From contig JBAYVF010000008.1 of NCBI GenBank assembly GCA_041674705.1, positions 1 to 62,858 on the forward strand: a DNA stretch of 62,858 bases, given 5' to 3'. This stretch comes from Candidatus Omnitrophota bacterium (GTDB taxonomy: Bacteria; Omnitrophota; Omnitrophia; Omnitrophales; Aquincolibacteriaceae). The position numbers were made by a program, and so were the translations under genes. The notes under the pieces are model-generated. The model did not search any database. It saw only the letters and a list, made by a program, of their open reading frames with translations, and was not told the origin of the DNA. This document shows positions 3 to 55,280 of this stretch, one piece after another (position 1 is the stretch's first letter; each line of letters opens with the position of its first letter).

Positions 3-3000
3 CCCAGCGGACCCGCAGAGGGAGCATCACGTTCGGTCCTTGAAACAGCGATCGCGAAGCGTTCGGAAGTGCGGGGAGATTTCGACCCGGGAGCGACAAA
101 GGAACCGGGGGAGATAAAAGCTCGCCTGAACGCGGTGCTTTCAGAGATGTTTCGTTGGATTCGTGAAAAGGTTGAAGATCAGACTTTTTCCACATGGAGG
201 CCTGAGGCCGAAGTTCCTAACCGCGAACATGAATACATTCACGGGTTTAGCGCCCCCGGGTATCTGGATCCCGATTACGAAAAAATAAACAAGAGTATCG
301 ATTCTGAATACCTCCCCAGGTTCATCGCGCTTGGTGATCTGGCGATTCCTATCATCACGGAGTTGCTCGCTATTCCTGATGATAGTTCCAATCATTATCT
401 GAGGTTTTCTCTGGAGTATGTCGAATTCGCGTTGATGAAGCGGCAAGTGGAGGCTGGCCTTGCAGCAGTAGGAATTTCGCGGGTGGTGAATCATCCTGCG
501 AAACAAGGCGTTGAAATCGACCATACGATCAAGACGCTCGTGGAGTTATACAAATGGCACAGGGCTGCATGGACGAAACTCCTGGCCTACCTTGGCAAGA
601 AGTCTCAGCTTGATAGGGGCCGTCAGTTTACAGGGATCTATGTCTCACCGAGCGTTACGTTTCATCACATCATGAGCTCGTTCTCTGGGAATGGAGCTTT
701 TGGAGCCAAGAATTTTTGGGTCGTGGCGGTGCCGAGCAAGATCGATCCGCAGACGCTTGACTTCATGCCTGGCAAAGTACGCTTCAGCCGCTCGGAAGTG
801 CGCAATCAGAACACAGACCAGAGACTACAGACAACAGACCAAAGACCAACGACCAAAGACAAAGCTTCAAGTCTCCGGTCTCCCGCCACTAAAGTATCGG
901 CGGGCAGGCCAGTCTCCAGTCTGCTGTCCTCGGTTTTAGCGGTGGTGATGGGGATGATGGCGGTTTCCGTCAGGGCAGCGGAGAACACCCTTGCGGGTAG
1001 GATCCCTGCTTCCGGTCAAAACAAGGTTTCCTCCACCACTATCCAACAGATCTCTTTGACCCAGGCGGAGGTCCACCTGCTTGAAGAAGTGATGAATGAA
1101 GTGCACCCTACGTCCTTCCTGTTCGGCATGATGGATTGGGCCAAGGGCTATTTTAATGCGTTGGGCACAATAAAAACCCATCGTGCTCAGGGAACGCCGG
1201 TTCCAGATCGCGTTGTCACGGTCCGGACTGATTTTCCGCCTTTTGTTGAACGAGGCGTTCTGAAGAGTCTTTTCAAAAAAAGCATGATCGATGCGAAATC
1301 CAGCGCGATCGAAAAAGCTGTGGCGGAAAAATGTCTGATGATCTTTGGAAGGAATTTTAACGAACCCCTTGGGATCGCTTTGAATGATTCTGATTATTAT
1401 GTCCGTATCATTGCGGCTTATATCCTCGGAAAGCAAAATAACGACCCGAGGGCGATCACAAAGCTGTTGGAAATGCTAAAACAAGATAGCCCTTACGTCG
1501 ATCTCAAGTCAGTTCACGCGGGTGCTGCGATCGCAATAGGCGAGATCGGGACAAGAAATGAAGTTCAAAAACTGGTCGATATCGGGATCAATGAAAAAAA
1601 TCCAAAAGTCGGCGGGCTTGTGCTTGCTGCGATCCGTAAAATAGAAAAACGGGAAGGTCTGTCTCCGGTTACGGTCGATCTCCGGGAAAACGTCTCGCCG
1701 TCTGAAGTGTTTTTGGACGATTTTGATATGGGATGGATTAATGGTCTTCCAGACGAAACGACCGCTCATGAGAGGAAATTCCAGAACGCTCTCCTCGGCC
1801 TTCAGGAAAAAGCCGACAACGTCAAAAAAGAGGCCGCCGAAACATTAGGCCGGTTGAAGGATCGGCGCGGTATCCCCGTCCTGATCTGGGCTTTGAAAGA
1901 AGGGGGGGGGAATGAAGTTCGTGCCGCGGCGGCAAAGTCTCTCGGTGAGTTCGGCGACGAACGGGCTATTCATCCTCTGAAAAAGGCCGTTGAATCCGGT
2001 GACGAATCCCTTCGCCAGGCTGCGAAGGAAGCGCTCGAAAAGATCCAATCCTCTTTCCGCTCGGAAATGCGGGTAGATCTTATCTTGATCGCGTTCGTTG
2101 CCTTTTTCGCCATTACCGTCCTTCTTTCCGGGCATGAACTGCGGCATGTGAAAGCGCTTAAAAATAGGGATGAAGGGAGATATGGAAACTATCGAGCGGT
2201 CCTTGCTCAGCGTCTCGCGCAATTTAAGGGTATCGAGAACCCCACCGAAGAACAACTGCTTGCAGGAGCGGTGTGGGCCGCGCCCCAGGCTCCGGCGTTT
2301 TTCGCGGCTTTGGCCGGAGGCTTTGGAGCGTTTTATTTATTCCTGAGCTTGGGAGAAGTTGCTTTAAGCGCCGCTTTATCCTGCTTTGTTGTCTATTCCA
2401 TGGTGAAGTTTGGTGCTATCTCAATCGTGAATCAAGGGAAGTCCGGTCAAGGACCTGAGGATTCAAACCTATCCGATACCGAATCTCGCTCCGAAGTCCG
2501 CTTGCCCCTGCCTACCGGTCAGGCAGGCGCCAACGTTGCAGTGGCGGGGAAGGACGGCCGCGCGGAAGCGCGGGGGCAGCGGAAATGGTTAACGGCAATT
2601 AAAGCTATTCAGGGGTTAATCGTTGCTGTTGTGACTTCCAGAATAATCTGGAGCATTCATCTAATCGCGGCCCGTGGCCAAGAAGAGGCATTGGGAATAG
2701 ACGGTGTTGGATTACTTGGAATTATCATGGCGTGTTTGTTTATGGCGATACCTGCCGGGGTTGTTTTATTGCTGCCTTTTTTTGCTTGGAGTGGATTCCT
2801 GGATTACTTGTTTAAAAAATTCCCTACTCGATGGATCCCGGAAGGTTTCTCCCGAGACGATTTAAGGCGGCACTTACCTGTATTGGGCCATCTTTGGGAT
2901 AGCTTAAGGCTTTTGAAATGGGCGTCTTTACGGGACTCCGCAATGTTGCTTGCCATTGAAAATCATGATACCGACAAATTAGTTTCATTGGGTCATCCTC

Positions 3001-6000
3001 GAGCGATCAGATTTATGGCAAACGATGAATGGCTCGAATGGGATGCCAGCGCTAAAGACATTTGGAATGCGATGGCACTGCTCGAAAAATTTAATGCTAA
3101 AGAAAGAGATAAAACCAAAGCGCGTGAAATTTTTATAAAACACTTAACGTATGCCGCCTATAAAAATGAACATATTGGCGATCTTCATGAAACCGCTGCA
3201 CTGCTGAAAATGCTTAAGGCCACAGCTTTGCAAATAAGCGGTGCGGTCTCTCTGGTGCTTTCAACCTGTTCGAACCTCCTTCAGAACGATGGGAAAAATA
3301 TTTTTGAAAAGGTCTTGGAAGTAAAAGGAGCGACACCATCTTTCTTAAGAGAATATTTCCAAATGTATAAAGCCGGAATTTATGACCCCATTGTCAAGCT
3401 TGGATTGCCACCTGAACAAACGGTTCGTGATATCACCAAAGCTCTCAATCGCACAAAAATTTCCGTTATCCCAGCGGTTACAAGGGAGGAATATGAAGAG
3501 GAGACAGGGTATAACCAAGGCGGTCCTTCGACAGTAGAGGTTACCATTATACCTCGAGAAGAAAAGATCGATCTTGAACCGGCGATAAAAGAAGCGCAAA
3601 GAATTGTGGCAGAAGCAACAGGTCGTTCCGAAATGCGGACTTATCAGACACCCGTTATTTCTCAGATTCCAGCGGGTGATGCGAGCAATTTGACGGCAAA
3701 GATCGGGACGGCGATCCGAGTGGCGGCGAATACGCACCGCTCCGAAGTTCGGGGAAATCTGAGCGCTAAACCCTCTACGCTATTCGCTAAAAGGCTAATG
3801 CTGGCGGCGGTGATGGAAATGATGGCAATTTCCGGATTGGTGGGATGCGTATCATTCCGCCAGGCGACCCGTTTTGTTCCGGGCCCGACCAATTCTGCGA
3901 TGGTTCAGGCAGGGTCTCAGGTTTCTTCTCAGAGGATTTTGACCCGGGCCGAAGAGAAAAGATTTCGAGAGGCGATCAAAGGTTTAAAAGCCGAGCGTTC
4001 CTGGGACCAGGCAGACGCAGTAAAAGCGCTTGTTGCCTTGAAAGATCCACGTGCTATCCCCGAGCTGATCAAGTTACTGGATGCATCCACCGATGAGGAC
4101 TATTTTTATCACAACGAAGTGGTGAGCGCGATCGTTAAGCTGAAAGATTCTCAAACTGCTCCAAAGTTGATCGAGGCATTAAAAGATAAATCAGGGTCGG
4201 TGCGAAGCAACGCAGCCAAAGCGCTTACGGAGCTGAAAGATCCTCGAGCTTTCCTTGCATTGATTGAAGCCTTAAATGATGAGGACTATAAAGTTCGGGC
4301 TGCCGCCGCTGAGGCCCTTGGCGCTTTGAAGGATCCCAAGGCTGTTCCCGCGTTGCTCGTGAAATTAAAAGATGAATCATGGTGGGTCCGCAGCAACGCC
4401 GCCGATGCTCTTGGCGCGATAAAAGATTCCCGGGCTACCCCAGGGCTGGGCGAGGCCGTAAAAGATGAAAAAATGGGGGTTTTCATAAGCGCCGCGAAAG
4501 CCCTTTTGGAGATCGGAGATTTCGAGGCTATTTCTGTATTATTGTCAGCTTTAAAAGATCGCGAATATGACAATCTTTATACCGGCCTGTTCAGACAGAA
4601 AGCTCTGGAGAAGATCATGGGCTTTCTCGAAGACCCCCGCGCTATTCCTTTGGCGGTCGAGGCATCCAAGGATAAGGAAGATAATGTCCGCAATACTGCA
4701 GTGGAAGTGCTGAGACAGATCCGGAAGGCTGAGTCGGAGAGAAAAAAACAGAGCTCGCCGACGTCCGTGGATGCAAATGAAAAAGCCGAAGCCCGCTCGG
4801 AAACTCGCTCCCCAAGTTTCCGCACTGAGAGTGACGGCAAGGTCGGCACCGTACGTGCCGAAGTCCGCTTGATGCCCGAGCAACTGCATACGGCTGCCAC
4901 GGCGATTTTTGCCATTTCTTCTCTTTTGACCGTGTATTTTTCAGGGTCTCTTTTGTGGAAAGCAGTCAAGTTCAGAACGGGTAAATTTACCGCCTCTGAT
5001 CGTGAAATCGCACTGGCGAGAAGCTATCTGGCTCAAAAGGGGCTCCCATTCTATGTCGGGAAAAATATCGACCTTTTATTCAACGTCCTTCGTTATTACA
5101 TCGAAACGGATCCAAGATTGGCAAGAGGGTTTTTGCCTGTTGCTGTTCTGATGTATTACGGAATGATTAATGGGCCTAATTCGATCGGAGCTGTCTTGCT
5201 TGGCGGAAGCGTTATTGTCGCGTTTGCTTACGGGAAATTCCTGAAGTGGATCGCCGCGCATATCGCGAGCCCGGACGATCTTGACGTGAATCAATATGAC
5301 CGTCCTCGTGGTCGCTCCGAAGAAACCGGACGCCGTCCGGAGGGAAAGGGTAAAGAAGCCCGCTCGGAAATGAGAAATGATGAGCCCGACCTTGCGTTAT
5401 TGGGGGCTGTTATTAAAAGCATGGCTTATGGCTCGCCGGAGGCTGATGGCTTGCCGGTTCAGCTTGAAGAATTGTCAAGGTCGACCTTGTTATATATTTT
5501 TAAAGATCGTGATTGGGTTGCTCTTTCGGTAAAAAAAGGAATCAGCATGGCGGATAGTGAGCGCGATTCTGAAGGACTAGAGCCGGTCGGCGATGATGAG
5601 GCTAATGTCGAACAATCTATTCGAAAGATAAGGCAGCGCTTTGCCGACAGGCTCCGTGAGATTAGTCGGACGCCGAAGGCAATACGTGAGTGGAGATTTT
5701 TTGCGGAGGGGCCCGGAAAGAGCGGAGTTAATCTGCCAGGTTTGAAGCGGGAGGTACAATCCTTGGCAACGTTTACACCTGAAATTATAAGAGAATCCGA
5801 GGTTTTTCCGAATTTATCCCGAGAAACACTTATGGCTTTCTTTCTTGAGGATAAAGCGAGAGTTCGCAGATGGATAAGCGCAAACTTGCTCTCCCTCGAA
5901 GTTCCGGGCGCAATCTACGAAGCTGAGGATCGCCGTAAAGCGGTCGAAGATCGGATCGCGGCTAAGCTCGTTGACATGAGTACAACGACTTCTGAATTAA

Positions 6001-7430
6001 TGGAGCTCACCGAGCTGAAGGGAGAAGGGTTGTACGAAAATGGGGAGCTTTTTGAGAAATTAGCTAAAAGCCTGCCTTATTTTACCTATGCTCAGGCCTT
6101 TCTTGCTCAAGATTTTCCGGGTCGCGCCTTGGCCATCGCTAAGATCGATGAGTTTTATCAAAGGCAAGATATTAACGATCAAACAAAGGCTGAGATTACG
6201 GCGAGATTGAGTGAATTTCTTAAAAAAGAAGATCCGAATTTACTCAATCTGATGAATAGTCTTTTGAAAAGAAGCCAGGGGGCTTTTTACCTTAGGGGAA
6301 ATCCAGGTATGCCGGGTCAAAAGAAAACGGTTACCATCGAGATTCAAACTATCACTCGTGCGTTTCTCGAGCTTCTGAAGGGCGTATCCGATATAAAAGT
6401 GCTTAAAGCTTTAACTTCGGCGCTCATTCAATTACTTAGATACAGCCTTCTTTACGGACCTGCCGATGTTAAGGCCGATATTAAAGAGGCTCTCATCCGA
6501 TTTGACGATCGAGCCAAATCTGAAAGAATTCCTTTGAATATTTATGATCACATGGAAGCAGGAATTAAGGCGGAAATGCGGTCGGAGGTACGATCGAATG
6601 AAAAGCCGAATCGGAAAGCGCTTGATTGGGTAGTTTATCCGAAGCGAAATGCGTTGGAAACGATTGGAATTGACAAAAGCAGCATAGGCGCGAAGATCGG
6701 GACGGCGATCCGGGTAGCGGCGAATACGGTTTCGCCGCTGCTCTCAAGTAAGCCGGCGTATGCCTCAGAGATCGCGCCGCAGGTTTTTGCCGGGACAAGT
6801 CATTTTCAGAAGGTGACGGTGGTGCCTCCGGCGTTGGCGGCAAAATGGCCGGTTCTGAGTAAGATCATTGGCTCTTCCGCAACCGCTTCGACTGAGCGCA
6901 TGGTCATCGACCAGCGGCAGGGGATCCCTGATGCGGCGAGCCTACTGCCCTTGGTCACTTTCGCCGCTTACAATCCGAAAGCGAGCGTGGTGCTTGCCTT
7001 GATCGCGGATGCTTCTGATGTGGAGGCTTTTATTAAAGAGCTTGCGGCCTTGAGTCCGAAGGGCGCTCTTCCGCAAAATTTTAAGGTAAAAGCATTCGCC
7101 AACGAAAATGAATTCGTCCGGGCCTTTGCCGGATTCTATAACGATGCAGCTCCGCTTGGACAATCCGTGGCGCTTGTGACGGATCGCGAGAATTCGATCG
7201 TGACGAAGAAGATCGGTTCGCGCAAGAAGCTTTTGAGCGTGGTCGGTGCCACGAGTCCGTTGAAGCAGACTGCGTCGACGCTTCTGGCCGCGGACAAACT
7301 CCTCAATGAGGCGATCTGGTCTTTGGGGTATCACTTCGTGTCAGTCGAGAAACTCGGCGGTCTGGAGGCCCTCATGGCCGAATTGACGAGCTATGTCGCC
7401 ACCCAGGCGAAGGTATTGGCCTCAGCGTAG
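3..7430 (+). CDS. Giant modular protein G1, 5'-partial: HEAT/PBS-lyase-like repeat modules, TM segments, unknown helical modules and a C-terminal domain, separated by RSExR linkers
   Basis: The ORF track gives 69..7430, but the same frame is open from position 3 (PSGPAEGASRSVLETAIAKRSEVR...) with no stop, and the GTG at 69 is the V of an RSEVR motif. HEAT-like repeats (e.g. VRAAAAKSLGEFGDERAIHPL, VRSNAAKALTELKDPRAFLAL). 11 R[SA]ExR motifs. Ends ..ATQAKVLASA*. Confidence 0.9.
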   Translation, partial: PSGPAEGASRSVLETAIAKRSEVRGDFDPGATKEPGEIKARLNAVLSEMFRWIREKVEDQTFSTWRPEAEVPNREHEYIHGFSAPGYLDPDYEKINKSIDSEYLPRFIALGDLAIPIITELLAIPDDSSNHYLRFSLEYVEFALMKRQVEAGLAAVGISRVVNHPAKQGVEIDHTIKTLVELYKWHRAAWTKLLAYLGKKSQLDRGRQFTGIYVSPSVTFHHIMSSFSGNGAFGAKNFWVVAVPSKIDPQTLDFMPGKVRFSRSEVRNQNTDQRLQTTDQRPTTKDKASSLRSPATKVSAGRPVSSLLSSVLAVVMGMMAVSVRAAENTLAGRIPASGQNKVSSTTIQQISLTQAEVHLLEEVMNEVHPTSFLFGMMDWAKGYFNALGTIKTHRAQGTPVPDRVVTVRTDFPPFVERGVLKSLFKKSMIDAKSSAIEKAVAEKCLMIFGRNFNEPLGIALNDSDYYVRIIAAYILGKQNNDPRAITKLLEMLKQDSPYVDLKSVHAGAAIAIGEIGTRNEVQKLVDIGINEKNPKVGGLVLAAIRKIEKREGLSPVTVDLRENVSPSEVFLDDFDMGWINGLPDETTAHERKFQNALLGLQEKADNVKKEAAETLGRLKDRRGIPVLIWALKEGGGNEVRAAAAKSLGEFGDERAIHPLKKAVESGDESLRQAAKEALEKIQSSFRSEMRVDLILIAFVAFFAITVLLSGHELRHVKALKNRDEGRYGNYRAVLAQRLAQFKGIENPTEEQLLAGAVWAAPQAPAFFAALAGGFGAFYLFLSLGEVALSAALSCFVVYSMVKFGAISIVNQGKSGQGPEDSNLSDTESRSEVRLPLPTGQAGANVAVAGKDGRAEARGQRKWLTAIKAIQGLIVAVVTSRIIWSIHLIAARGQEEALGIDGVGLLGIIMACLFMAIPAGVVLLLPFFAWSGFLDYLFKKFPTRWIPEGFSRDDLRRHLPVLGHLWDSLRLLKWASLRDSAMLLAIENHDTDKLVSLGHPRAIRFMANDEWLEWDASAKDIWNAMALLEKFNAKERDKTKAREIFIKHLTYAAYKNEHIGDLHETAALLKMLKATALQISGAVSLVLSTCSNLLQNDGKNIFEKVLEVKGATPSFLREYFQMYKAGIYDPIVKLGLPPEQTVRDITKALNRTKISVIPAVTREEYEEETGYNQGGPSTVEVTIIPREEKIDLEPAIKEAQRIVAEATGRSEMRTYQTPVISQIPAGDASNLTAKIGTAIRVAANTHRSEVRGNLSAKPSTLFAKRLMLAAVMEMMAISGLVGCVSFRQATRFVPGPTNSAMVQAGSQVSSQRILTRAEEKRFREAIKGLKAERSWDQADAVKALVALKDPRAIPELIKLLDASTDEDYFYHNEVVSAIVKLKDSQTAPKLIEALKDKSGSVRSNAAKALTELKDPRAFLALIEALNDEDYKVRAAAAEALGALKDPKAVPALLVKLKDESWWVRSNAADALGAIKDSRATPGLGEAVKDEKMGVFISAAKALLEIGDFEAISVLLSALKDREYDNLYTGLFRQKALEKIMGFLEDPRAIPLAVEASKDKEDNVRNTAVEVLRQIRKAESERKKQSSPTSVDANEKAEARSETRSPSFRTESDGKVGTVRAEVRLMPEQLHTAATAIFAISSLLTVYFSGSLLWKAVKFRTGKFTASDREIALARSYLAQKGLPFYVGKNIDLLFNVLRYYIETDPRLARGFLPVAVLMYYGMINGPNSIGAVLLGGSVIVAFAYGKFLKWIAAHIASPDDLDVNQYDRPRGRSEETGRRPEGKGKEARSEMRNDEPDLALLGAVIKSMAYGSPEADGLPVQLEELSRSTLLYIFKDRDWVALSVKKGISMADSERDSEGLEPVGDDEANVEQSIRKIRQRFADRLREISRTPKAIREWRFFAEGPGKSGVNLPGLKREVQSLATFTPEIIRESEVFPNLSRETLMAFFLEDKARVRRWISANLLSLEVPGAIYEAEDRRKAVEDRIAAKLVDMSTTTSELMELTELKGEGLYENGELFEKLAKSLPYFTYAQAFLAQDFPGRALAIAKIDEFYQRQDINDQTKAEITARLSEFLKKEDPNLLNLMNSLLKRSQGAFYLRGNPGMPGQKKTVTIEIQTITRAFLELLKGVSDIKVLKALTSALIQLLRYSLLYGPADVKADIKEALIRFDDRAKSERIPLNIYDHMEAGIKAEMRSEVRSNEKPNRKALDWVVYPKRNALETIGIDKSSIGAKIGTAIRVAANTVSPLLSSKPAYASEIAPQVFAGTSHFQKVTVVPPALAAKWPVLSKIIGSSATASTERMVIDQRQGIPDAASLLPLVTFAAYNPKASVVLALIADASDVEAFIKELAALSPKGALPQNFKVKAFANENEFVRAFAGFYNDAAPLGQSVALVTDRENSIVTKKIGSRKKLLSVVGATSPLKQTASTLLAADKLLNEAIWSLGYHFVSVEKLGGLEALMAELTSYVATQAKVLASA
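807..934. repeat. Heptamer-based degenerate inverted repeat inserted in frame in G1
   Basis: Eight 7-mers (CAGAACA CAGACCA GAGACTA CAGACAA CAGACCA AAGACCA ACGACCA AAGACAA) followed by complementary-type arms (AGTCTCCGGTCTCC, AGTCTCCAGTCTG). Starts 3 nt after RSEVR 789-803. Confidence 0.7.
1380..2050 (+). other. HEAT-repeat module 1 in G1
   Basis: Repeated 'VR..AA..LG...D.RAI..L' units (DSDYYVRIIAAYILG, KKEAAETLGRLKDRRGIPVL, EVRAAAAKSLGEFGDERAI). Confidence 0.8.
2507..2527. repeat. REP-like hairpin CCTGCCT-ACCGGTC-AGGCAGG, in frame in G1
   Basis: Perfect 7-bp arms, directly after RSEVR 2487-2501. Encodes LPTGQAG. Confidence 0.55.
3960..4730 (+). other. HEAT-repeat module 2 in G1
   Basis: About 7 tandem ~31-aa units (DKSGSVRSNAAKALTELKDP, DEDYKVRAAAAEALGALKDP, DESWWVRSNAADALGAIKDS). 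Confidence 0.85.
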
Positions 7431-8645: not shown

Positions 8646-11600
8646 ATGATTAGCTGGCAAACACATAGTTTTAAGCCTTGGCTTAGGACCGTTGCGCTAT
8701 TGACGGTTTGTGTGTTTACCTTCACATCGATTGTTTGGGACGGCGGCATCAACAAAGCTTATGCAGCGGCTCCCAGTCCTTCCAGTCCCACCCCCGTAGA
8801 AACCTTCAAAGCCAATGCCATACTTTCTCTGATCGATCGTCCTGACCTTCCCGATAGTTATGGAACGATCAAGGGAACCTTCAAGGGGAATCGCGACACG
8901 ATCGTGATCGCGATCCAGGACGCGCACATCAACGAAGAAGCCCAACGCAATATCGCCAATATCATTCGTTATTTCTCGGAAAAATATCAGCTCAACCTCG
9001 TGAACCTCGAAGGCGCGAGTGGCGAACTTTACACCGAACTCTTTTCCTTTTTCCCGAATAAAGAAGCCCGCCGGAATGTCGCCGATTATTTCCTGAAAGA
9101 AGGACGCCTTACCGGCCCCGAATATCTCGCCATTGTTGACAAGCCGGCGATGACACTTTTCGGTGTGGAAGATAAAGACCTTTACGAAGAAAACCGCAAA
9201 GCCTACGTGGACGCGCTCCAGTTCAAGGATCGCGATGAAAAGATCCTCGCCGAACTCGATAAGGTCCTTCAAGGGGTAAGCCGTTTTGTGTTCCCGGAAG
9301 AAATGCGTGAGCTGACCCGCCGCCGCGCCGCGTTCCAGGAAGGCGGGCCGGAGCTCGTCGCTTATGTCCGTTATCTTGTGGAGCTGGCCCGTAAGCATAA
9401 TATCGCCTTGGATGAATATCCGGGCATGCATTCCCTGATCGAGCTCGTGGACCTTGAAAAGAAAGTCGATTTTGACAAGGCTGAAAAAGAGACCGATGAA
9501 CTCGTTAATGACATGAAGCGCGTTCTCTCGCGCGAGAAGCTCTCCCGTTTCCTCACCAACACCGTCCACTTCCGCATGAAGAAGATGAAACGCGCCGCCT
9601 ATTACGGCTATCTTCAGGATGAGATCCAGGGGATTAGCGTGGCCCAAACGGGAGGGGAAGACCTGAACACGAAATACGCTAATGTGATCGCCTATATTCA
9701 ATACATGAAACTCTATGACGCGATCGATGTTTCGATCTTTGACGAGATCGAGTTCCTTGAGAAGACCGTCAAGAACAAGCTCTTCACGTCGCCGGAACAG
9801 GTCCAGCTCGATCACATCCTCAGGATCTATGATATCTACTGTAAGATGTTCGACTTTACGCTCACCAAACAGGATGCCGAGTTCTATTACACGTATCAAG
9901 ACGAGTTCAAGTCAGAAACCTTTGTAAGTTTTCTCAACCCGCTCATGTCGAAGTACCACTTCACCTACGGATTGCCGTCCCAAGTGAAGACACTCGATCA
10001 AGATCTGCCGCGTGTGGAGCGCTTCTATAAAGCCGCTCTGGAACGTGATCAGGTGTTGGTCGAGCGAGCGGTTGAGAAAACCTTTGCCACTGGGCAGAAG
10101 ATATCCGCCATCGTCACAGGCGGTTTCCATACGCCCGGGATCGAGAAGTACCTTCGCGAGAAGGACATCTCTTATATCGTCGTCGCCCCGCGCATCACCA
10201 AGGCGATCGACAAGAAAAAGGAAAGCGCGCTCTATGACGCCGCCCTGCGCGAAACCCCGCTCCCGATCGAAAAAGTCCTGACGGAGACATTCCTCCAGCC
10301 CCGGAGCGCCGTTCTGAATGACCCGCGGTTCCAGCTGGCCGCATGGCACATGATCCTGGCGAAGGGAGATAAGCTCGATTTTTCCAGTTTTGATTCCGAT
10401 CGCGTTCTCTACTTTCCGATCGAAATGGCAGCTTCGCTTTTGCGGGCCTCGGACGTTACGACCGCTTTTAAGGAAATCACGGACTCGCTTGCGAAGCTCG
10501 AGGAGAACGCTAGCGCCAGGGACAAGCCGGCGGTGGCAGCCCTGAAAGCATTGCTTGCCAAGTTTAAGCCGGAAAATATCACTGAAGAAGCCGACGGGAA
10601 CAGGACCTTGTGGATGCCGACGGTCGGAGAAGATTTCCTTGCTTTTACATTGCATGGCGAAAAATGGAAAGTGACTGAAGTGAAGGGCGCTATTCCGGGG
10701 TCGCGTCGTTCGATCCCGTCCGGCGAAAAAACAATCTCTCTTTATCGTGTGCGTGGTTTCATGGTTCCGGAGAAGGTGAAGACGGCCCGCGCTGAACTTC
10801 GTATCGGGGATGTTCTAGTTCGGACCGGTGAGCTTCCCATGACGGATGGCTCTGCCGCACTTAAACTTGAACCGACTGCCGGACCCAATCTCAGGCTAGT
10901 CGAGGTGGCGCAGGAAGCGGCCATTAAAGCGTCTCAGACGCAGCAAGAGCTCTATGAGCGCAATCTTGATCGTTATAAAAAATCCGGATTTGAAGTCCCG
11001 ACCCAAAAAGATGCCCAGACGGCGTTCCGCGCTCTTCTTTCAAACGCAAAATCCGGGGACAAGCTCCAAGCGCTGATCGAGACAGGCGCGCCCCAAGCGT
11101 TAAAAGCCGGTCTTATGGACCGCGTTATGATCATCCGGCTTTTAGGCCCACGTTATTCGGCGGATATGATCCGTACGAGAGTTCCGCGTCTTCTTGCCTC
11201 GGATGTCCCGGTGAATACCTACACGATGACTTTCCGGACCGATGCAGACATTGATGTCTATCGCCAGCGTTTGAGTGAACGGCAAGAAGAGGTTTTTGCG
11301 AAAAGCTATGGGGAAGGTCTTGAGCCGTTGATCCGTCAGGAGTTGGAGGGACTTCGCTCCGCCGGTATTACGCCCAACTTGGATACGATGAGAGTCCAGG
11401 TGGAGGCGGGTAAAAAATTAGCGCAGGGATCCTTGTATCGTCTCCCGATGGGTTTTGGTAAGACCCTGGCCTTGCGAGTGGCGGCTCACATGCTTGCCAG
11501 CGAAAGAAATTTTAAAACGGCCGAAGGTAAAGGCGTTCTTGTTTGCACGGTGAATGATGACCTTGCTATGAGGGACGCGACGGCGGCAGGCAAAATACTT

Positions 11601-14600
11601 TCGAATTTCGGTCTTCGGGTAGGATTTGTGAAAGATAAAGAGGGCCAGAAAGTCGGCTATATTTTCAACAAAGAGACCGGTGCCCTGACGGAGACTTCAG
11701 CGGATGAGGTCTATCGAAGCGCTGATGTCATCTATGGGACGGTCGACAAGTTTGTACACAGGTACGAGGACGAGGAGCTCGCGCTCGACGTGACTGACAG
11801 GGTATTCTCGAAACGGCAGTACTTTGTTCTTTTTGACGAGGCCGACGAACCTCTGACTTATCAGCTTATGATGCCGTTTATCGTTTCGGGTGGCGAAAAA
11901 GCCGATGCCGAAAGGATAAGACAGCAGAATATTAGCGCGCGTGAACTTGCAATGGCTATTTATGGCGCCAATGGCGAAGGCGTTAGTCAAGGGATGGTTG
12001 ACATTTCCAAGGAAAAGCAAAAACGGGTTTCGCTGACCCCCAACGGAGCGAATCGCTTGGAAGTTCTTCTGAACGAAAAACAGGTGGAGCTCAAGGAAAA
12101 GTGCGGCTTGGGGGCTGACGTCGTGTTGTGGAAACGCCTGGTCGAGCAGGCTCTTGCGGTCGAGAGGAGTTATAGCCTGGGCACGGATTATCTGATCATA
12201 GGGAAAGAAATCGTCATTATTGGCGAGGATGGCAAACCCCATCCTGGCACGAGGTGGTCGATGGGGCTCCACGCTGCTGTCGAGGCCAAGCATATGAAAG
12301 ACGGAGTCGAGGTTCAGGTCGAGCAGATCACAAGAAACTCCATGATGCTTAAGACGTTCCTTGGTAATAAGAAGCTTATCGCTGATTTTGCGGGCGCCAG
12401 CGGCACCCTTGACGCAGAATTTATGAAGGAAATCCATGGAAAATCCGTTGAAGAGCCCTCCGTAGCGGCCAGTTCCCGTCTTGATACAGACATGATGTAT
12501 GCCGGTGAGGCGTCTAAATGGGAGGCTTTCTTCAAAGAAGTAATTGAGAAAGCCCGCCAAGGGATACCCTTGGTTATTAAAGTCGAGGAAGGAACGGCTT
12601 CCGAGATGGAAGCGAATCTTCGGAAAATGGGGATCCCGTCCGGGGCAGTCATTCGCATATTTGATGCGTCTTCCGAAACCGATATCGCTGAAATAGAAAA
12701 ATTTGGCGGGCAGACGGGCGCTATTACGATCGTGACGAATCGCGGGGGCCGCGGCGTTGATATCAAGCTGGCCGAAGCCTTCAAAAAAGTCAGTGAGGAG
12801 GCAGCCAAAAGCGGCAAGCTGTTCACGGTTTATTCAACCTATATCGACGAGCTGGAGGCCCATGATGTGCAGTTTAGAGGCCGGGCCGCGCGTCGAGGAG
12901 AGTCTGGCCAGTTTAAGGCTTATTGGTCGGTCGAAGACAAGATATTCAAAAAATACGAGGCTCTGCCCGCGGTTCAGGCCGCGTTGGCTGCCATTAAACG
13001 GGAATTCAAGACCGCGGGGGAACCGATCAAAGAAACACGCGAAAAAGGTTCTACGACCGTGACCGATCTTATCGCTGCTTTAAGACGTGCGATCATGAAT
13101 TCGAGAGTCCAGCAGTTCAAACAAGATCAGCCCTTCGAAAAAGAAATGGAAGATCGCAAAGCCGCGTTCCAAAAAATCCGGGAGGCGGTGTTGGCCGGCC
13201 GTTTCGATGATGTCGTTCTCAATGCAGCTATTCCCGGGATCGTCGATCTCGCCCGGCGCGTCAGCAAGGGGAGAGAAGAAGCTTTCAGGAAAGGAATCCT
13301 CGAGTTGATCGACCGGGGTTTTTCCCAATACCTTGATATCGCCGGCAAAGTGAAACATGATCTTTCCCAGGAGATGCAGGAAGATTGGAAAGGGGTCGCC
13401 GCGCAACAGGATCCGTACGTCAAGTTCAGAGATATATCGCTTGCGGCCTACAGGAACGCCCTCGAGTTCATTAATGTTTCGATCGCCCGGAATGCCCCGA
13501 AAGACTGGACGCCCACCGCCACAGCAAAAGCCTTTGGCGTGAAACTCGATACCTTAAAGAGGAAAGCATCCGGATATTTATTCGGCGGAGCTCTTCTGGC
13601 CGGTTCGGTGTGGGTGATCAGTTTTGTGATGCAAGGAGCGAGTTTTATTCAGAAATTGGCGGCAGGGGGTGCCGTCGGCGATATGACCTCAAAACTGGAA
13701 TTTTTGCAAACGCTTTCGACGAACGTGTTCCAGAGCGTCCCTGCAGCGGTTTGGGTGGTTGCCGCGATAGGACTTATAGTTCTCGGATTTACTTTAGCGC
13801 AGACCTATGTGAAGAAATTTTCTCAGAATTATAAAGGATCCAGGAATATGGCCCTGTTTTTCAGAGGGACTGCAACCTGGTCCGAGCGCCTTGGGGCGGT
13901 GGTGTCCATTCCGGTTTCTGTGCTGACCATGCTTAGTTCGATGATGCCCTTGAGTGCGCTGCTCGCTTCGATCGCCGTGCTCGCGTTTCCCGCGACGGCT
14001 TCGTTTCTGATCCCCCTGGTGGTCGCCATGGCTGCGGTAGGGGTTGTCGCAGCGGCGCTTCTTATCGCGGTGAATTACCGCAGCATCAAGGAAACGCGCC
14101 TGGATCAGCCCAGTAATTTTCAACGCGCGATGCGTTCGTTATTGTTCGGGCTTACTTACCTGACGGCGGTCGGGCTGATCGTGATGTTTGTTCCGGGCAT
14201 GCTCTCGGCGGTGTTCGCCGCTGCGGCAATAGGCGTGATCGGCATTCGTGCCCATCAACGGTTCCGGGCGGATTATGGGAAGATTCTTGAGCCATCGATG
14301 CGCGCCAAGGCGGCAGGTTTGGTCGCTGCTGCGGTAGTTTTTACCGGGATTTTCGCCCTGGCATCCTTTGTGGGTTCCGTGGCCGGATTATTTGCAGCGA
14401 TGATGACCGTAGGATCGATCATTCTCATCATTACAACCGGGCTTTATTTTTTCGCTCTTCCTTATATTGCCTCGCGTTTGGCGGCCGTTGAAGCTCAAAC
14501 GATAGGCGGCAAGCACAAAGCTCTTACTCTGAGAGAACTGCTCGAATCCGCGGCTCCGAACGCCCGCGGGATCATCATTGGTGGCAGTGCGGTAGGCGCG

Positions 14601-17600
14601 CTTAGCATGAGTGTTGTTGGATTGGCGGGCAGTTTGCCGGTTCTTACGCTGGTGGGGGTGACCCTCGCGGTGATCGGGGCCGGATTTCTATCTGTGGCGG
14701 GTTTTTTAAATTACAGGAAAAAAGTTTTGGCGTTACGGGCAAAGGGCGAAACTCCGGAGGGTGTTTTTTCGACGCTCCTGGGTACGGACAGCAGGAAGAT
14801 TGTTCAGGGGCTGATGTCCAGTGTGGCGCTTACCGCGGCCCTTCCGTCGATTGGGGCGGGAGCGATGCTTGCCCCGGTAGCCTCTGTAACGCAAAGTATC
14901 TATGCCACCCAGACGAGAGATCAGCTGGTCGAAAATCTCAGCAGTGTTTTTAACATTGCTGTTGCCCCTCAGATTGAGGCGAAAAAACCCGAGGCTGCAC
15001 CGCACACAGGGCTTGCTCCGCCCGTTGCAGACGCTCAAGTCGAAACGGTGCAAAAAGAATTATTGAAGGAGCTGGCAAAAGTGCCGCCGATGGATATGAG
15101 GCGGACACAGCTCGAGGATGCGGTCCGTCAGGCGAAGACGGCTCCGGAATTAGCGAGTCTTACCCAGAGAATCTCGATGATGGTTGCCGCGTCTGAGGCT
15201 GTTGTTACAACTCCCGTGGTGGAAAAAGCGCCGGTGGCAGTCACGGCCGATCAAGATGCAGTTCTTTTTAAAAAGGGTCCGACGGAACCTACCGGTCCTA
15301 CGGGACCCACCGGTCCCACAGGTCCCGGGGGTGGTCCGGGCGGCGGTCCTCCTCCTGGTGGTGGGGGTCCTACAGGTCCGACAGATCTGGGTGGTTTACC
15401 TCCGGGCGCGCTCCCGCCAGGCGGCATCACGGTCCCGATCGATCGCCGAAATGAAGAGAAAGTTGAATTTTCTGAAGAAGCGCTGCGGGCGACCGCAGGG
15501 ACGCTTGGGACCTATGCCGGTCCGTCAATGGTCATGAACGCCAAGGCGAAGGCCGAGCTTGAAAGGATCGACAAACTCGAGGCCCAAGAAAAATCCGCCG
15601 CGGCTCTCGATCAAGCCCGCCTCGAAACGATCAACAGCCGGATCCGTTTCCTGACGCAGGATATTCAGCAAATGAACCGGGATCTGAACGGCGCCGGAAG
15701 TGATGTGACCGAGGCTCTTTCCGCCAAGATCGCAGAGGCTAAGGGTGAGATCACGCGTCTTGAGCAGGAATCTGCGCGTCTTCGTGTGACTCCCAAAGTT
15801 GTGCCGCCTGAAGTGAAAGCTGCGGAAACGCCGAAGGCTATGGCTGTCCCTCCCGCCGCTCCCAGAGCCGAACTCATCAAAGAAGATGCTGCCAAGGCTG
15901 CCGGAGAAGGTGCGACATCCGGGCTGGTGGGTGTTGCTTCGGGGATTCTCGTAGCGTCGGTTGAAATACCCCTGGTAATGAATCAGGCTGAAAAGGATCT
16001 TGCGGACGCGGATCCTGCCCTGTGGCTCTTGAACAGAACGCTCGGAAATAATTTTGCTTTGCGCTGGCAACAGAATGCGAAGGAACAGAGAGAAATCGCG
16101 CTCAAGGCCGTACAGTGGAGGAACTCCATTTTCAAGCTGATGATGAACTTCTCGTGGAATTTTAATCCGCGGGTTTATCACATGAGCCAGAATAAAGTGG
16201 AGATGGCTGAAGGACAGAATATCGATTTTCCTTATAAGTGGGCTAGTGACTCCGAAGGCAATGTTTATCTCCGGCAGTTGGGCGTGGAAGGTCCCAAGGT
16301 GAGTCCGAGAGTGACCGTGATCCAGGACAAAGATCTTGTGTCAGACAAGATGCTGGATCTCGGGGATGTCAGTATTTCGGTAGGCCAATACCTCAATAAT
16401 TTGAATCAGATCCTGAAGTGCCCGGATTTCTGGAAGTATGTCGGCCATGCGCCCGTGGATCCTCTGGAATTTGTCAGTAATGACGCCTACGCCAAGTGGT
16501 CGGGCGTGGCGGGCTATTGGGCATCTCATTACGACACGGTCAAAGGGGAATTCAATAACGCGTCTCTTCCCGAGATCATGAAGGCCTTGGCGGAAACCAA
16601 GGTCAATCTCGAACAGTCTTTGGGCAGGGAACTCGATTTGCAAAATATCAAGGATGCGAGTCTTCTCTCCTGTCTGGCGAAATACAAGATTGAGGGGATC
16701 AATACCGATGAGCTTTTTGGGGAACGTGATAAAGGAAACGTTTTTCTTCTGGCCCAGGCGGAACTAGTCAGCACGCTGACGACTCATTACCGGGGAATCC
16801 TCGAAAAAGAGTTCGAGCGCGAAGATCTGACCCTCCAGTCGATGAAACTGGAAAAGATCGAACAACAGGGCCGGTTCACTACGGAATATCGCGCAATTCA
16901 GGGAGAGATTGTTCAGATAGGCGGCCAGATCACTGATCTGGAGACAATCAGGACTGCCGCAGAAAAGGCGAAGCCGGAGAATATGCTTTTGGAGATCGCC
17001 CGGGCCAAGAGAAATAATGAGCCCATTCCGAGCATTGGATTCGTTCCTTCCGAACAAAATATCAAAGATCTGGACATCGCCATCTCCGACAGAAAAGCGA
17101 AGCTCATTGAGTTGAAGCGCGATCTCTGGAGAAAGGAAAAGGAAATCCGGGATGCGGCCAGTCTTGATATCCACGCAAAGCTTCCCATCGATCTTTCGAA
17201 GATCACGGAGGATCAGATGATGAAGGCCGTCAAGAGTTTGGGGATCGCCGACTATTCTTCGCTTCAGATCCGTCTTTCACAGAATTCCATGGAGATTTTG
17301 CAGAGGAGGATCTCGAATGTCGCGGAGGTCAGCGGCGGCCTTGAATCGATCATTGATGCTTTCAAGATCGGGAATGTCTACAACATCGGGACCGAGGCGG
17401 ATCTCGGCATTTATTTGAAGCTCACGTGGGGCTGGAAAAATCTCCATCAGCGAGGTGTTGAAAAGCAGAAATATGAGAAGTCGGTCTATGAATTTATTGA
17501 TAACGTCCGTTCCGTGCGGCTCAAGCACAACGAAATAAACGCTAAGGTGGAAAGACTCGAGAGGGTTTTGGAGGCCACCCGGCAGTATCTTGATGCCCGC

Positions 17601-20600
17601 AAAAAAGCGACGGCTGAAATGGAGAGGCAGTTTTTGAGCCCTGACGGTAACGCTTCGTTAAAAGCGTTGATCTCCGCCCAAGATTCCGTTCGCCAGGCGG
17701 AGATCCTGGTGCAGGGACTCGAGCAGCTTCTTGCGAATGCAAAGCTCCGTGTCGCCATGTATGAGAATGCTTATGCGGATCTGAAGAAAGCCTTCCAGGC
17801 TGAGGAGAAGACGTTTGCGAAGATGGAAATTCCGGTCCGGGAACTGGACGAGTGGGTGGGCGAGAAGGGCGGCGTTGAGGTGCCGGTCGCAAAACCCGTT
17901 ACGCTTACGAATCCATCCATTCAGGAGCTGGTAGGGCTTTCGCAAAGTAAGATTGATTTGTTCAAAAGAACGGGAACCACCATGAGCGCGGACCACGAGA
18001 CGGTCCAGTGGATTGCGTTCGAAGTTTTGGGGGGGCTGAAGCTTTGGCAGTATGGAAATGCTCAGGATTATATCCAGGGAGATCAAAGCACCTGGATCGG
18101 GCAAGGAAACTTTGGATTCTGGAAGGATCTTATGTTTGGTTCTATGGCGCCGAGGATCCAGGTGGTGGATGCTCCAACGGTCATGCGTCACCTGACAGGA
18201 CAGGTTTCCGATGAAACCCTGGCAGGCCAGGTTGGTCGTGATACGGTCGAGATAGAGTTGATCCATCACAATCAGCGCATTGCCGACCAGGTACGTGAAG
18301 CGGTGCGGCTCCGGACGTCCCTGCAGGATAAGGAGAATCGTCTCCGTAACGAGATCAGTGCCCTGAAAGGGCGCATGAGCGAAGGGGTTAAGGAAATCCG
18401 GGACGCGGGCCTTTTGAGTTCCTCGGAAAATTCGGGACCCCCCCAGAGAATGCAGATTCTTGAAAAAGCAGTGAAGGATTTTTCCGAAAATGAGGCGGAG
18501 ACTGTTAAAAAGCTTTTGCGAGAAACAGGTCTTTCAGAAGAAACGCGAACGAAGTTAACGAAGTTGATGGAAGAGATAGTGAATCTCCGCAAAAAGGGCC
18601 GGACGGTAAGTAGCCTTGAGAATGAGATTGCGAACCTGAAGACGGAGATGAATAAAGGACTTGAGGAGATCCGTGCTGCAGGCTTTTTGAGCCCGAAAGG
18701 AATGAGGGTTTTTGACGAAGCGGTAAAGGATTTTTCCAAAAAGGGGTTTATCGTGGAAGAGGCGGAGAATGTTATAAATCTTTTGGGAGGAGGAACAGGC
18801 CTTTCGAGTAAGAAAGATCAGGAATTGATGTCGGAAATGGCGAATTTCTTCCAGCGGGTGGCGGATGTGGAGACAGCGCGGATGAAATATGACGTCTGCG
18901 TTTTTGAGCTCAAGTCGACGATCGGACTCAGTAACGGAGAAACCCTTATTTTTTCTCCGGATTACAATTTGAACGCACTGGAAGAAGGCTCGGAATTCCT
19001 GAAACCTTATCCCCGGATCCTGGATGCTCAGCTGACGCTCACGAAAGAGGGCCGGGAAAAGATAAATAAATTTTTGGATGAGATCAAACGGGCGATCAAA
19101 AAAGTCAACAAAGTTTCGACCCCCGAAAAACTTAAGGCACAAAAAGAGGGGGTCGTGAGCGCGTTGACGGCGGTCAAGGCGAATCTCGAGGCCGTCCTTT
19201 CCGGGACACGGTCGGCGGAGTCTTCGACGCCGGATCTGCTGACCCAGGCAAGTGTCATGTATCTGGAGGCGGAGCGTCTTTTCGCACAGACCTTCCCCAA
19301 ACGGGGCAACGCCCTTTTCAACAATGCACGGTTGCTGCTTGTGGATATTTCCGGTATCCCGCAGGTGCTTATGGCGGCCCGCCATCTGGGATGGGCAGAT
19401 CGTAATATCGGGATGCGGGATACGTTAAAGTGGGAGCCATTCAGTTTGGGAGCTTTTTTTGGAGTCGGTATAAAAGGAGCAAAAGTGGTTGCGGGTGTGG
19501 CGCCGGATAGCGAATTGCCGGAATATCTTATCGGGAGCACGCTGATCGGTATTCAGAAGGGTTGGCAAAAACTGCTTCCGGAGAAGAAGATTCCGATCGT
19601 GAGTAATTTTTTCCGTAACCTGGCGAACCTCTCCGGAACGAATCCCGAGGGACGTTGGCAGAAGATGCTGGAGTTTCAGACGCGTGCTATGCAGGAGATC
19701 CTTCTCGCCGAAGAACCCACGAATGAACCCCTGAGCCTTAAACAGAAATATAAAGCGGATTATATGGTTTTGGCGGAGTTGGAAGCGCTTTACAGCGCGC
19801 GGATCGATGAGGTCAATGCCCGGGAAGAGAAGGAAGCTCCCTTAAAAAGATTTCAGCAGGCGATGGACAATAACCAGACGATCGCACAGGGCTTTGAAGA
19901 GGACCGGCAAATTCTGACAGAACGTATGAATTACACGAAGAACGTAAAAGACGCGATCGCGTTCCGCATTCGCCTGCTCGGGGGCCCGGATCAGAAGACG
20001 TTGGATCAGGAACTTAATCCGCGTCCCATAATCGAAGGGGAAGTTCGGCAAGGCTCGGTTAAATTTCTCGCGGGTGATTTGAAGGGAGATTTTGACGCCA
20101 ATGCCTTGAAGGGGAACGGGTTAGCGGATGGATGGGACCAAGGGAAGCTTGACGCGATAAGGACGAGGCTTGGGATCGGAGTTGCTGTCACTAAAGAAGA
20201 GTGGGTGGGGGAACTCAACCAGATCCTAAAAGCCAAGATGCGTGTTGCGGATTATCAGGGCCTTCAGCAAAATCCCTTGATCCTGAAAAATCTCGACAGC
20301 GAGATCCAGGGATTACTAGCGAAGGTGCTGGACCCCAAAACGGTCGTGACGACAGAAGCAGAAGCGGAATTAATAAAACAAAAGCTGGATCCAAAACCTC
20401 ACATAACTGAAACAGAATTGGAGCGTCTGAACAGAAAATTATTAGAGGCCGTTTACCCGCAACAAATCGAGAAGACTATTTTTGATAAAGTTCGTTCTGT
20501 GGAAGGCGCCACGGCAGGGAAAGGAATTGGACAGTCTCCCGTACGGGAGGTTAGTTCTCTGGAAGGCGCTAAGGCGCTGAAGTCGGAAACCCTCGAAAGC

Positions 20601-55000: not shown

Positions 55001-55280
55001 GGCGGTTCCCGCCAGGGAGCGGATGGCTCAGACCATGATCGTCTCGGATCTTGGGGGTCGAGAGAATCTTGGACCGGCGCGCGATTACCTTGCGATGTGG
55101 GCGTCCATGATGAATGTCCGGATGGATAACGATGCCTGGACGCTTCTTAACCAAAAAGTTGCGAACGCTCTGAAAAAGAAGGACGGATTTTTTAAAATGG
55201 ATCGCGATGCCCTGGCAGGCCTTGCCGAGATCTTGAGCCAGATCTTTGTGCAGGAGCGGGTGACCTCAACGGCAGCGTAG
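37080..55280 (+). CDS. Giant multi-enzyme protein G3 (6,066 aa)
   Basis: Uninterrupted 18.2-kb ORF with TTG start and AAGGAG. Signal-like N-terminus, shared N-terminal domain, more than 12 enzyme-like domains separated by R[SA]ExR. Ends ..QERVTSTAA*. Confidence 0.93.
   Translation: [6066 protein letters not shown]
37275..37339. repeat. Heptamer inverted repeat, in frame in the G3 N-terminus
   Basis: CGGGGAA CGGGGAA CGGAGAA ... TTTCCCG TTCCCCG TTTGCCG TTTCCCG. Confidence 0.7.
37350..38760 (+). other. Conserved N-terminal domain of giant proteins (G3 copy)
   Basis: IENAH (H at 37374), FVEGAAE, QREKVF, VTGGFH (38634-38645); colinear with the G2 domain. Confidence 0.8.
38447..38507. repeat. 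GTCAT..ATGAC two-hairpin miniature element, in frame in G3
   Basis: GTCATCCCCGAACGTTTTAATCGGGGATC-AAGGTC-TGGATTCCCGCTTTCGCGGGAATGAC. Confidence 0.85.
39180..40350 (+). other. Radical SAM domain 1 with C-x15-C-x2-C and a SPASM/twitch-like tail
   Basis: Cys at 39291, 39339 and 39348; VTGGGEP, MNTNG; C-terminal LCF...GMCCD...HCIVGC. Confidence 0.75.
40600..41950 (+). other. GT-A glycosyltransferase, mannosyl-/glucosylglycerate synthase-like
   Basis: [14 protein letters not shown], LIDSD (DxD), [36 protein letters not shown], EKIHK. Confidence 0.7.
41990..42660 (+). other. 2H phosphoesterase-like domain
   Basis: Two His motifs, LHTAI (42201) and IHMTL (42468), with typical spacing. Confidence 0.65.
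42700..43740 (+). other. NAD-dependent epimerase/dehydratase (extended SDR) domain
   Basis: [20 protein letters not shown], YELGK (YxxxK), [9 protein letters not shown], RDYI. Confidence 0.85.
43750..44780 (+). other. ROK-family sugar/cyclitol kinase domain
   Basis: [44 protein letters not shown]. Confidence 0.85.
44830..45960 (+). other. Sugar-phosphate cyclase (DHQS superfamily; sedoheptulose-7-P cyclase/EEVS-like)
   Basis: [63 protein letters not shown] (45597), HGEAVAID. Confidence 0.85.
46340..47290 (+). other. HAD-superfamily phosphatase domain 1
   Basis: FDIDGT (46374), FATVRG, K in RKNEAL, FFGDD...GLD. Confidence 0.75.
47620..48820 (+). other. Two tandem type I phosphoribosyltransferase-like domains
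   Basis: [11 protein letters not shown] (47955) in the first; degenerate [11 protein letters not shown] in the second. Separated by RTEVK at 48204. Confidence 0.65.
50420..51150 (+). other. HAD-superfamily phosphatase domain 2
   Basis: ASDWDGS (50448), VITTAA, LVMGDD..PMGND. Confidence 0.7.
51380..52400 (+). other. Radical SAM domain 2 (canonical CxxxCxxC) with a SPASM/twitch-like tail
   Basis: [13 protein letters not shown] (51447-51470), GGGEPTI, LGTNG, LCY...IYPCC...RCRIGC. Confidence 0.85.

Follow-up and report, generated by a model that had tools for sequence, protein, structure and literature searches.

The subject of this analysis is the N-terminal domain shared by two giant proteins of a Candidatus Omnitrophota bacterium. 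Their genes lie in a 62,858-nucleotide stretch of DNA (NCBI assembly GCA_041674705.1, contig JBAYVF010000008.1), which is contig C8 of a 1.78-Mb genome that is 87% complete and holds 15.5% of its sequence in open reading frames (ORFs) of at least 1,500 amino acids (aa). This whole stretch, hereafter the window, consists mostly of three giant frames, G1, G2, and G3 (Table 1). Both G2 and G3 have a basic n-region at the N-terminus, then a hydrophobic helix that leads to an A-x-A site (AYA at 8757-8765 in G2, SWA at 37152-37160 in G3), and their first ~570 residues can be aligned colinearly (BLASTP E=2e-31, 23% identity). An earlier note on this DNA, made from the letters alone, had described a signal helix and a colinear domain at the start of both genes, an arrangement borne out by the alignment and the A-x-A sites; we refer to the ~490-aa domain as the head. 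Signal peptides were judged by eye from the translations for an n-h-AxA layout, with no predictor, and on this basis such an N-terminus is present in 9/9 head-bearing paralogs of the genome.

Within the head, the motifs that the note had named (QDAH/ENAH, EG, RD/RE, and GGFH) were all found in their places, and the interval it had proposed, 8850-10250, falls inside the G2 domain as delimited here, 8823-10280, whose C-terminal limit coincides with the ends of the stand-alone heads P0023, P0024, and P0026. In G2, IQDAH spans 8913-8927, with EG, RD, and GGFH located as given in Table 1. The G3 counterparts are IENAH (37362-37376), EG (37458-37463), RE (38559-38564), and GGFH (38634-38645), with N97-A-H99, E127-G128, E180, R494-E495, and G519-G-F-H522 as candidate catalytic residues; at the acid position two residues before the first His, G2 has Asp and G3 has Asn. 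The head had also been said to be followed directly by the first copy of a short motif, R-A-E-x-R, that recurs along the giants. This motif does come next, only after 220 residues past GGFH in G2 and 145 residues in G3, with a small variable region in between.

Table 1. Coordinates of the giant frames, the head domains, and their candidate functional residues in the window
Feature	Position	Strand	Description
G1	3..7430		Giant frame, 5′-open
G2	8646..36596	+	9,316 aa; start is ATG at 8646
G2 signal peptide	8646..8765	+	Residues 1-40; K10, R14, hydrophobic core, AYA/A; from translation
G2 head domain	8823..10280	+	Residues 60-545, ~490 aa; split α/β core plus helical insert; family profile E=2.6e-208
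D92-A-H94 (D-x-H, first catalytic His candidate)	8919..8927	+	Just past predicted core strand 1 (DSSP strand 27-33, then H35, domain numbering)
E122-G123 (catalytic Glu candidate)	9009..9014	+	End of predicted second core strand (59-62, then E63); hhalign pairs the Glu with ChaN-like AIE
E175 (second conserved Glu)	9168..9170	+	End of predicted strand 111-115; 98% conserved; then Y180, N183
All-helical insert, ~290-300 residues	9174..10088	+	Domain residues 118-422; DSSP of G2 model
R467-D468	10044..10049	+	Predicted long helix preceding last β-α-β unit; hhalign pairs it with the Arg of TraB E-R-N
G492-G-F-H495 (GxxH, second catalytic His candidate)	10119..10130	+	Pfam ChaN matches end here; aligned with GAGH of TraB and ChaN-like proteins
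RAELR, first G2 junction motif	10788..10802	+	Residues 715-719
G2 SecA-type domains and hydrophobic-helix cluster	11370-12800 and 13570-14700		G2 residues 909-1389 and 1644-2017
G3	37080..55280	+	6,066 aa; start is TTG at 37080
G3 signal peptide	37080..37160	+	Residues 1-27, SWA/S
G3 head domain	37197..38759	+	Residues 40-560
RAEVR, first G3 junction motif	39078..39092	+	Residues 667-671

In an alignment of 182 heads, H35, Q41, and E63-G64 are 100% conserved (domain numbering; adding 59 gives G2 numbering), and D33, E100, E116, Y121, N124, R408-D409, G433-G-F-H436, P456, and Y471 are 91-99% conserved. For the single motifs, the figures are 96% for the Asp of D-x-H, 96% and 91% for the Arg and Asp of R-D, and 95-96% for GGFH. 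Judged by this conservation in 182 family members, the head motifs are not a product of chance.

The head opens at least nine giant frames of the genome (up to 11,517 aa) as well as one contig-edge fragment. When a profile of 25 heads was searched against 1.84 billion representatives, it retrieved 10,289 clusters at E≤0.001 and 7,358 at E≤1e-30; among the best 150 clusters, the domain starts within the first ~70 residues in all 150, in proteins of up to 7,853 aa. Members were found in Elusimicrobiota too, and some members stand alone, at lengths of 508-571 aa. In two cases, a large ORF follows immediately downstream of a stand-alone head: one encodes a 2,061-aa protein, and the other, on a contig of the Logan assembly SRR31357138 (L022:1-17587), a 1,716-aa protein in which aldolase, phosphofructokinase (PFK), and GAPDH domains are fused. 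On the latter contig, the head (528 aa) has a 23,525-aa gene on its other side, and the fusion begins with a signal-peptide-like segment of its own and is followed by a PGI-like ORF; glycolytic enzymes are here placed behind export signals.

The head is a real and ancient domain, for which neither of the two libraries searched, Pfam and NCBIfam, has a model, and its annotation would reach 10,000 or more protein clusters that now have no domain-library model. In the literature on giant Omnitrophota genes, a 2023 preprint says of the N-terminal regions that they "generally lack identifiable domains," and a 2026 preprint on giant proteins mentions nothing at the N-termini except signal peptides. 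Whether the giants function uncut or are cleaved is left open in both, and our literature search returned no paper pairing Omnitrophota with "polyprotein."

AlphaFold2 models were obtained for the heads of G2 (predicted local distance difference test score [pLDDT] 89.7, predicted template modeling score [pTM] 0.79) and G3 (pLDDT 86.2, pTM 0.82). Both show a β-α-β core whose N-terminal half ends near residue 117, then a ~300-residue all-helical lobe, and after the lobe a long helix with R-D and a final β-α-β unit with GGFH. According to the DSSP strings of both models, H35, E63, E116, and H436 each directly follow a predicted strand, and such a strand-end position of conserved residues, as modeled here, is the active-site location in parallel α/β folds. 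The helical insert is probably a lid or substrate-binding lobe. The heads L011, L040, and L009 are without ~100 residues of it (profile positions ~207-303), which indicates that the insert is modular; a search for a natural short head lacking it altogether returned only fragments cut by contig ends.

The TIKI superfamily is characterized by a parallel sheet flanked by helices, with an essential Arg and a 2His/2Glu set close to the core strands (a Glu-x-His, a Glu, and a His), and its named members include PMT, HopBA1 (5T09), Bcr135 (3B55), and ChaN (2G5G) (PMC6254334). The corresponding order, an acid-x-His, a Glu, and a His in GxxH after core strands, is present in G2 (D92/H94/E122/E175/H495) and, with Asn at the acid position, in G3 (N97/H99/E127/E180/H522), as is a conserved Arg on the helix before the GxxH strand (R467 and R494, respectively; compare Arg-4001 of RRSP and the E-R-N of TraB).

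The earlier note had named a Foldseek comparison of the AlphaFold model as a check on its proposal of a TIKI/ChaN/EreA-like domain. Searched against 350,542 PDB chains, the G2 model had the erythromycin esterase EreC as its first match (6xcs_A, E=0.072, probability 0.66), and its top 50 also contained 6xcq, 3b55, 2rad_A, 2g5g (ChaN), and 5t09 (HopBA1). Superfamily entries appeared again for G3, more weakly: 2rad_A (with a probability of 0.28 the highest of the list), 3b55, 6xcs_A, and the Tetrahymena TraB-family chains 8b6h_DQ and 8bqs_DQ, all at E of about 1-2. The remaining matches of both models were almost all coiled-coil or helical-bundle noise, which is caused by the helical insert, as is the global template modeling (TM) score of only ~0.2; no match reached E<0.001. 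Only TIKI-superfamily structures recur among the α/β matches of both models. PDB entries of this superfamily number only dozens, so their repeated appearance among the few α/β matches is hard to obtain by chance.

At the sequence level, searches with full heads gave no match in Pfam or NCBIfam and none by phmmer or hmmsearch against PDB sequences, and an insert-deleted profile likewise found none of the latter. Another query was a "mini-domain" from which the helical insert had been deleted in silico, a construct for homology search only. In this form, 16/30 diverse heads match the Pfam ChaN family, PF04187 (best E=3.4e-4), and 1/30 matches TraB, PF01963 (E=0.0023), with three members at most for any unrelated family. 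A scan of 301 Omnitrophota genomes with PF04187 gave sub-threshold matches at model positions ~135-205; the head profile places these in the R...GGFH segment of 14 or more heads. One relative, G105, reaches 28.0 bits compared with the gathering cut-off of 27.7 bits, over model positions 159-204 only, and its head also gives a 20-bit partial match to the erythromycin-esterase model PF05139 (E=4e-4). When aligned by hhalign with six ChaN-like proteins, the head is colinear over 178 columns (P=0.015), pairing IQDAH with GESH, LEG with AIE, and GGFH with GAGH; with six genuine Omnitrophota TraB proteins, K-R-D...VTGGFH is paired with E-R-N...VVGAGH (P=0.006-0.0095). The hhalign probabilities were 3-6% in these comparisons. 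Such low values reflect thin templates, as the ChaN-like profile search found only five proteins, and an attempted bridge to annotated ChaN proteins with the head mini-profile found head fragments only.

G2 and G3 themselves lie below the PF04187 cut-off (12.3 bits for the G2 mini-domain; no match or E of ~0.08 for the full heads), and neither PF05139 nor PF01963 has a match anywhere in the genome. They are not members of PF04187, PF05139, or PF01963, and our claim is one at the superfamily level. In another Omnitrophota giant, an open frame of 81,822 residues, two internal domains pass the Pfam ChaN cut-off (G291:C1:28210-28563 and 130231-130560; L039, L026) and do not match the head profile, which means that TIKI-superfamily modules occur inside giants too and not in heads alone.

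Among the known members, erythromycin esterases (EreA-D; Bacillus cereus Bcr135/Bcr136; PF05139; 6XCS/6XCQ, 3B55, 2RAD) are the best structural matches of both models. Ere and the modeled head share an α/β core interrupted by a helical lobe, a His after the first strand, a Glu after the next, and a second His in a C-terminal GxxH-like motif; the insert of the head is, however, much larger, and the head is an exported domain that is part of giants or has its gene next to theirs, whereas Ere enzymes are soluble antibiotic esterases. ChaN (Cofac_haem_bdg, PF04187; 2G5G) is the closest sequence model, likewise extracytoplasmic and with both His and the Glu matched by hhalign, but comprises ~250 aa without a large insert and is a known heme binder. 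A parallel motif series is seen in the TraB/PrgY/GumN/Tiki family (PF01963; vertebrate Tiki1/2, Enterococcus PrgY, E. coli YbaP), with LGSIH/VVE/ELE/ERN..M/VVGAGH in Omnitrophota TraB corresponding to IQDAH/LEG/GVE/KRD..L/VTGGFH in the head. This family includes membrane-tethered extracytoplasmic peptidases (PMC6254334). Against a closer equation, the hhalign match is confident for the C-terminal part only (P=0.006), and genuine TraB proteins are separate ~300-aa proteins in 6/251 Omnitrophota genomes, with none in this one.

Each of these links is weak alone, and all of them agree. We therefore consider it very probable that the head is a highly divergent branch of the Tiki/TraB-ChaN-erythromycin-esterase (TIKI) superfamily, with a catalytic set that appears intact. 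The TIKI/ChaN/EreA-like constellation of His, Glu, Arg, and His proposed in the earlier note survives as the best reading of the Foldseek matches, the ChaN matches, and the residue order, even though no single test is significant for G2 or G3. That the head is an active hydrolase appears likely.

Any role in maturation would have to be considered together with R[SA]E[VMILA]R, a motif that occurs 146 times in the giants, at 0.5-4 copies per 1,000 aa compared with 0.028 in other frames, which amounts to a roughly 20- to 140-fold enrichment per giant. It is located in linkers that are otherwise unconserved, with the first copy usually ~200-330 residues past the head. In G2 it is found at residues 715, 6083, 6097, 8501, and 8730; G3 has eight copies, one of which (residue 1866) stands between a 2′-5′ RNA-ligase-like domain ending at 1835 and an epimerase domain starting at 1883. 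The 5′-truncated G1 has 11 R[SA]E.R motifs, at ~4 per 1,000 aa the highest density of the window. A DNA-level origin of the motif was ruled out by its many synonymous codings. Its codons are biased nonetheless in part: the first Arg is CGC/CGT in 81% (41% elsewhere in the giants) and the Ser is TCN in ~93% (about two-thirds elsewhere), with Glu and the last Arg at background.

Within the genome, RSExR is found only in head-bearing giants, 5′-truncated giant fragments, and contig-edge pieces, and its count is zero in the complete headless large proteins C17, C18, C1, and C22 and in the adhesin-like C10, a contrast in which protein class, not lineage, is the confounder. In a 109-head tree, presence of the motif requires 8 changes, as opposed to ~36 in shuffles.

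Taken together, these observations point to a model in which a TIKI-type hydrolase head processes the giant chains, a reading to which we assign a probability of about 40%. The head would consist of a parallel-sheet α/β core split by the ~290-residue helical lobe, with D-x-H, E-G, and E at the ends of the first strands and R-D and G-G-F-H completing the site after the insert. As an exported hydrolase, it would be the first part to leave the Sec translocon and would then work as a peptidase, cleaving either the long chain to which it belongs or sister chains. The cuts made in this lineage would fall at the R-[SA]-E-x-R joints, which would make the giant ORFs polyproteins matured by their own head. 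The parts of this model differ in strength. Processing of its own or a sister chain, at whatever site, is a tentative proposal that we hold at somewhat below even odds, and specific cutting at RSExR, which we infer from architecture and co-occurrence, is more doubtful. Slightly less likely still is the full scenario of exported cellular polyproteins, in which a TIKI-type head stays at the translocon and cuts its own and sister chains at R-[SA]-E-x-R, such that dozens of ordinary-sized enzymes are set free beyond the cytoplasm or inside a host or prey cell. Even so, among the available candidates for a peptidase that processes the chains, the head ranks first, and its probable superfamily is one that includes site-specific peptidases. 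Giant Omnitrophota proteins exceed 100,000 residues, and the question of whether they act as chains or are cut would gain an enzyme, candidate residues, and candidate sites.

Several observations weigh against chain processing by the head, above all at RSExR. In 61 proteins whose head is followed by 1,500 aa or more, the motif is missing, as are the relaxed form [RK][SATG]E.[RK] and any other strict repeated pentapeptide; a search of motif-less head proteins for alternative linkers (GAR[LM][AS], A[AS]SLG, or any 5-mer with one wildcard) found none. The head is therefore far commoner than the motif, and its general function cannot simply be RSExR cleavage. In addition, the motif-less heads form one tight clade, so that the correlation between head and motif is inseparable from descent. 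G2, at 9,316 aa, contains just five motifs, and the nine heads of the genome are merely 23-30% identical, yet one identical motif goes with all of them. Nor did we find specificity residues common to these nine heads and missing from motif-less heads: the top columns parting RSExR-positive from RSExR-negative heads mark one tight clade only and not the deep paralogs of the genome. G3 places radical-SAM, NAD-, and ATP-dependent enzymes behind its signal peptide (radical-SAM, epimerase, ROK-kinase, and dehydroquinate-synthase-like modules), which implies either that the whole chain is exported or that the topology prediction is misleading, and leaves in doubt the compartment in which head and cargo would meet. 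Finally, no structural or profile match of G2 or G3 reaches conventional significance (Foldseek E≥0.07; Pfam E of only 0.17 for the G2 mini-domain; no PDB-sequence match by phmmer or hmmsearch). The proposal of an RSExR maturation protease, offered in the earlier note as an inference, thus retains a perfect co-occurrence within the genome but meets a sister clade in which most long head proteins are motif-less. As to this RSExR-less clade (58 sequences), it is a sharply distinct subfamily, with an invariant Cys after the catalytic His candidate (DAH-C-N-Y), Leu in place of the Arg that follows the conserved Asn, and a Pro preceding the conserved Tyr (alignment columns 36, 125, and 470).

These points leave room for a TIKI hydrolase that acts not on the giant chain but on something in the cell envelope, on the envelope of a prey or host, or on a signal of peptide or ester type, with RSExR handled by another enzyme or left uncut. 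Precedents exist in PrgY, which acts on a pheromone peptide, in Tiki, with Wnt as its substrate, and in Ere enzymes, whose target is a macrolide lactone. Known members of the superfamily work on foreign substrates in trans (PMC6254334, PMC8939145), stand-alone heads exist, and the catalytic residues stay invariant throughout the family, even in the large clade without RSExR or another repeated motif. Left unexplained by an external substrate are the presence of an own head on every polyprotein-type giant (at least nine per genome), the stand-alone heads adjoining cargo ORFs, and the confinement of RSExR to head-bearing chains in the genome. We regard this alternative as unlikely in itself, though nearly as likely as chain processing. 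An export, targeting, or anchoring module is less likely and, in our view, quite improbable. Here, the head would occupy a position like that of the two-partner secretion (TPS) domain, recognized by a transporter or serving as a ratchet or plug, and its residues would bind rather than catalyze. Its constant place right behind the signal peptide of very long exported proteins would suit such a role, for which the earlier note had likewise left room with its suggestion of a secretion-targeting domain, and some TIKI members are noncatalytic binders, as ChaN binds heme and PMT C1/C2 lack the 2His/2Glu motif (PMC6254334). Yet a near-perfect D-x-H/E/E/R/GxxH set in 182 divergent sequences is expected of catalysis and not of docking, the α/β plus all-helical models differ from the right-handed β-helix of the TPS domain, and no dedicated transporter gene, nor a protease gene, adjoins G2 or G3, the genes downstream being NAD synthase, ArgRS, MiaA, and HflX.

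The likeness to TIKI, ChaN, and Ere could also be convergent or spurious, in which case the head would be a new α/β fold family with an unrelated site, for example, one that binds metal. This would fit the lack of any match that is significant alone, from the Foldseek E values and TM scores to the hhalign probabilities, and the fact that the Pfam matches cover mostly the C-terminal third. It is hard to reconcile, however, with the recurrence of five superfamily structures among the very few α/β matches of two independent models, with ChaN being the only Pfam family matched by most members (one of them above the ChaN cut-off), and with a motif order and strand-end placement that agree with TIKI; we consider it improbable. 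By far the least probable option is a ChaN-like domain for heme or iron acquisition. ChaN is the closest Pfam model, and a bona fide small ChaN-like relative from Omnitrophota, P0213, is named "uncharacterized iron-regulated protein" by its source, but the head matches are below the cut-off and confined to the R...GxxH part, the full catalytic set of enzymatic members is kept, and the head profile does not pick up the bona fide ChaN-like proteins of Omnitrophota.

Returning to chain processing by a TIKI-type head, its closest analogy is with viral polyproteins that have a built-in protease. In both cases, a short strict motif, here RSExR, parts the unrelated modules of a chain that also contains a conserved enzyme domain, and the recurrent short site at module borders that characterizes polyproteins is found in R[SA]E[VMILA]R, for instance between the two Pfam domains of G3. 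The giants differ in being cellular, exported, and chromosomal, the candidate protease is of another fold, cleavage is putative, and many head proteins are motif-less. In MARTX toxins, the TIKI domain is a cargo effector that acts on host proteins, and the chain is processed by a separate cysteine protease domain; by contrast, the TIKI-like domain of the giants is the constant N-terminal head. The likeness, drawn from description only, is that the MARTX Ras/Rap1-specific endopeptidase is a metal-independent TIKI-fold enzyme with 2His/2Glu and an essential Arg, set within a giant, exported, autoprocessed multidomain protein (PMC6254334), as the head would be under this model.

In two relatives (L042:6001-11527 and L043:6001-11680), a G2-type head is called as a separate ORF of 671-691 aa, which overlaps the next ORF by 20-32 nucleotides in another frame, 95-154 residues before the first RSExR. 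The ORF ends thus do not coincide with the first RSExR, and the arrangement is either an assembly frameshift or a real split, with a frameshift probably the better explanation. Upstream, both loci have patatin, AMP-binding, and hydrolase genes, none of which occurs in the window.

Elsewhere in the window, G2 continues beyond its head with SecA_DEAD, SecA preprotein-binding, and SecA P-loop domains followed by ~9 hydrophobic helices, and G3 has no second hydrophobic helix of transmembrane strength across its 6,066 aa. The three giants end in similar-looking Ala/Ser-rich tails (...ATQAKVLASA at 7180-7427 in G1, ...AAQAVAQSA at 36350-36593 in G2, and ...QERVTSTAA at 55030-55277 in G3), and BLASTP of giant tails gave no significant similarity except between the giants C5 and C7. 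G1 (3-7427), finally, contains many HEAT/PBS-lyase-type repeats and ~8 hydrophobic helices.

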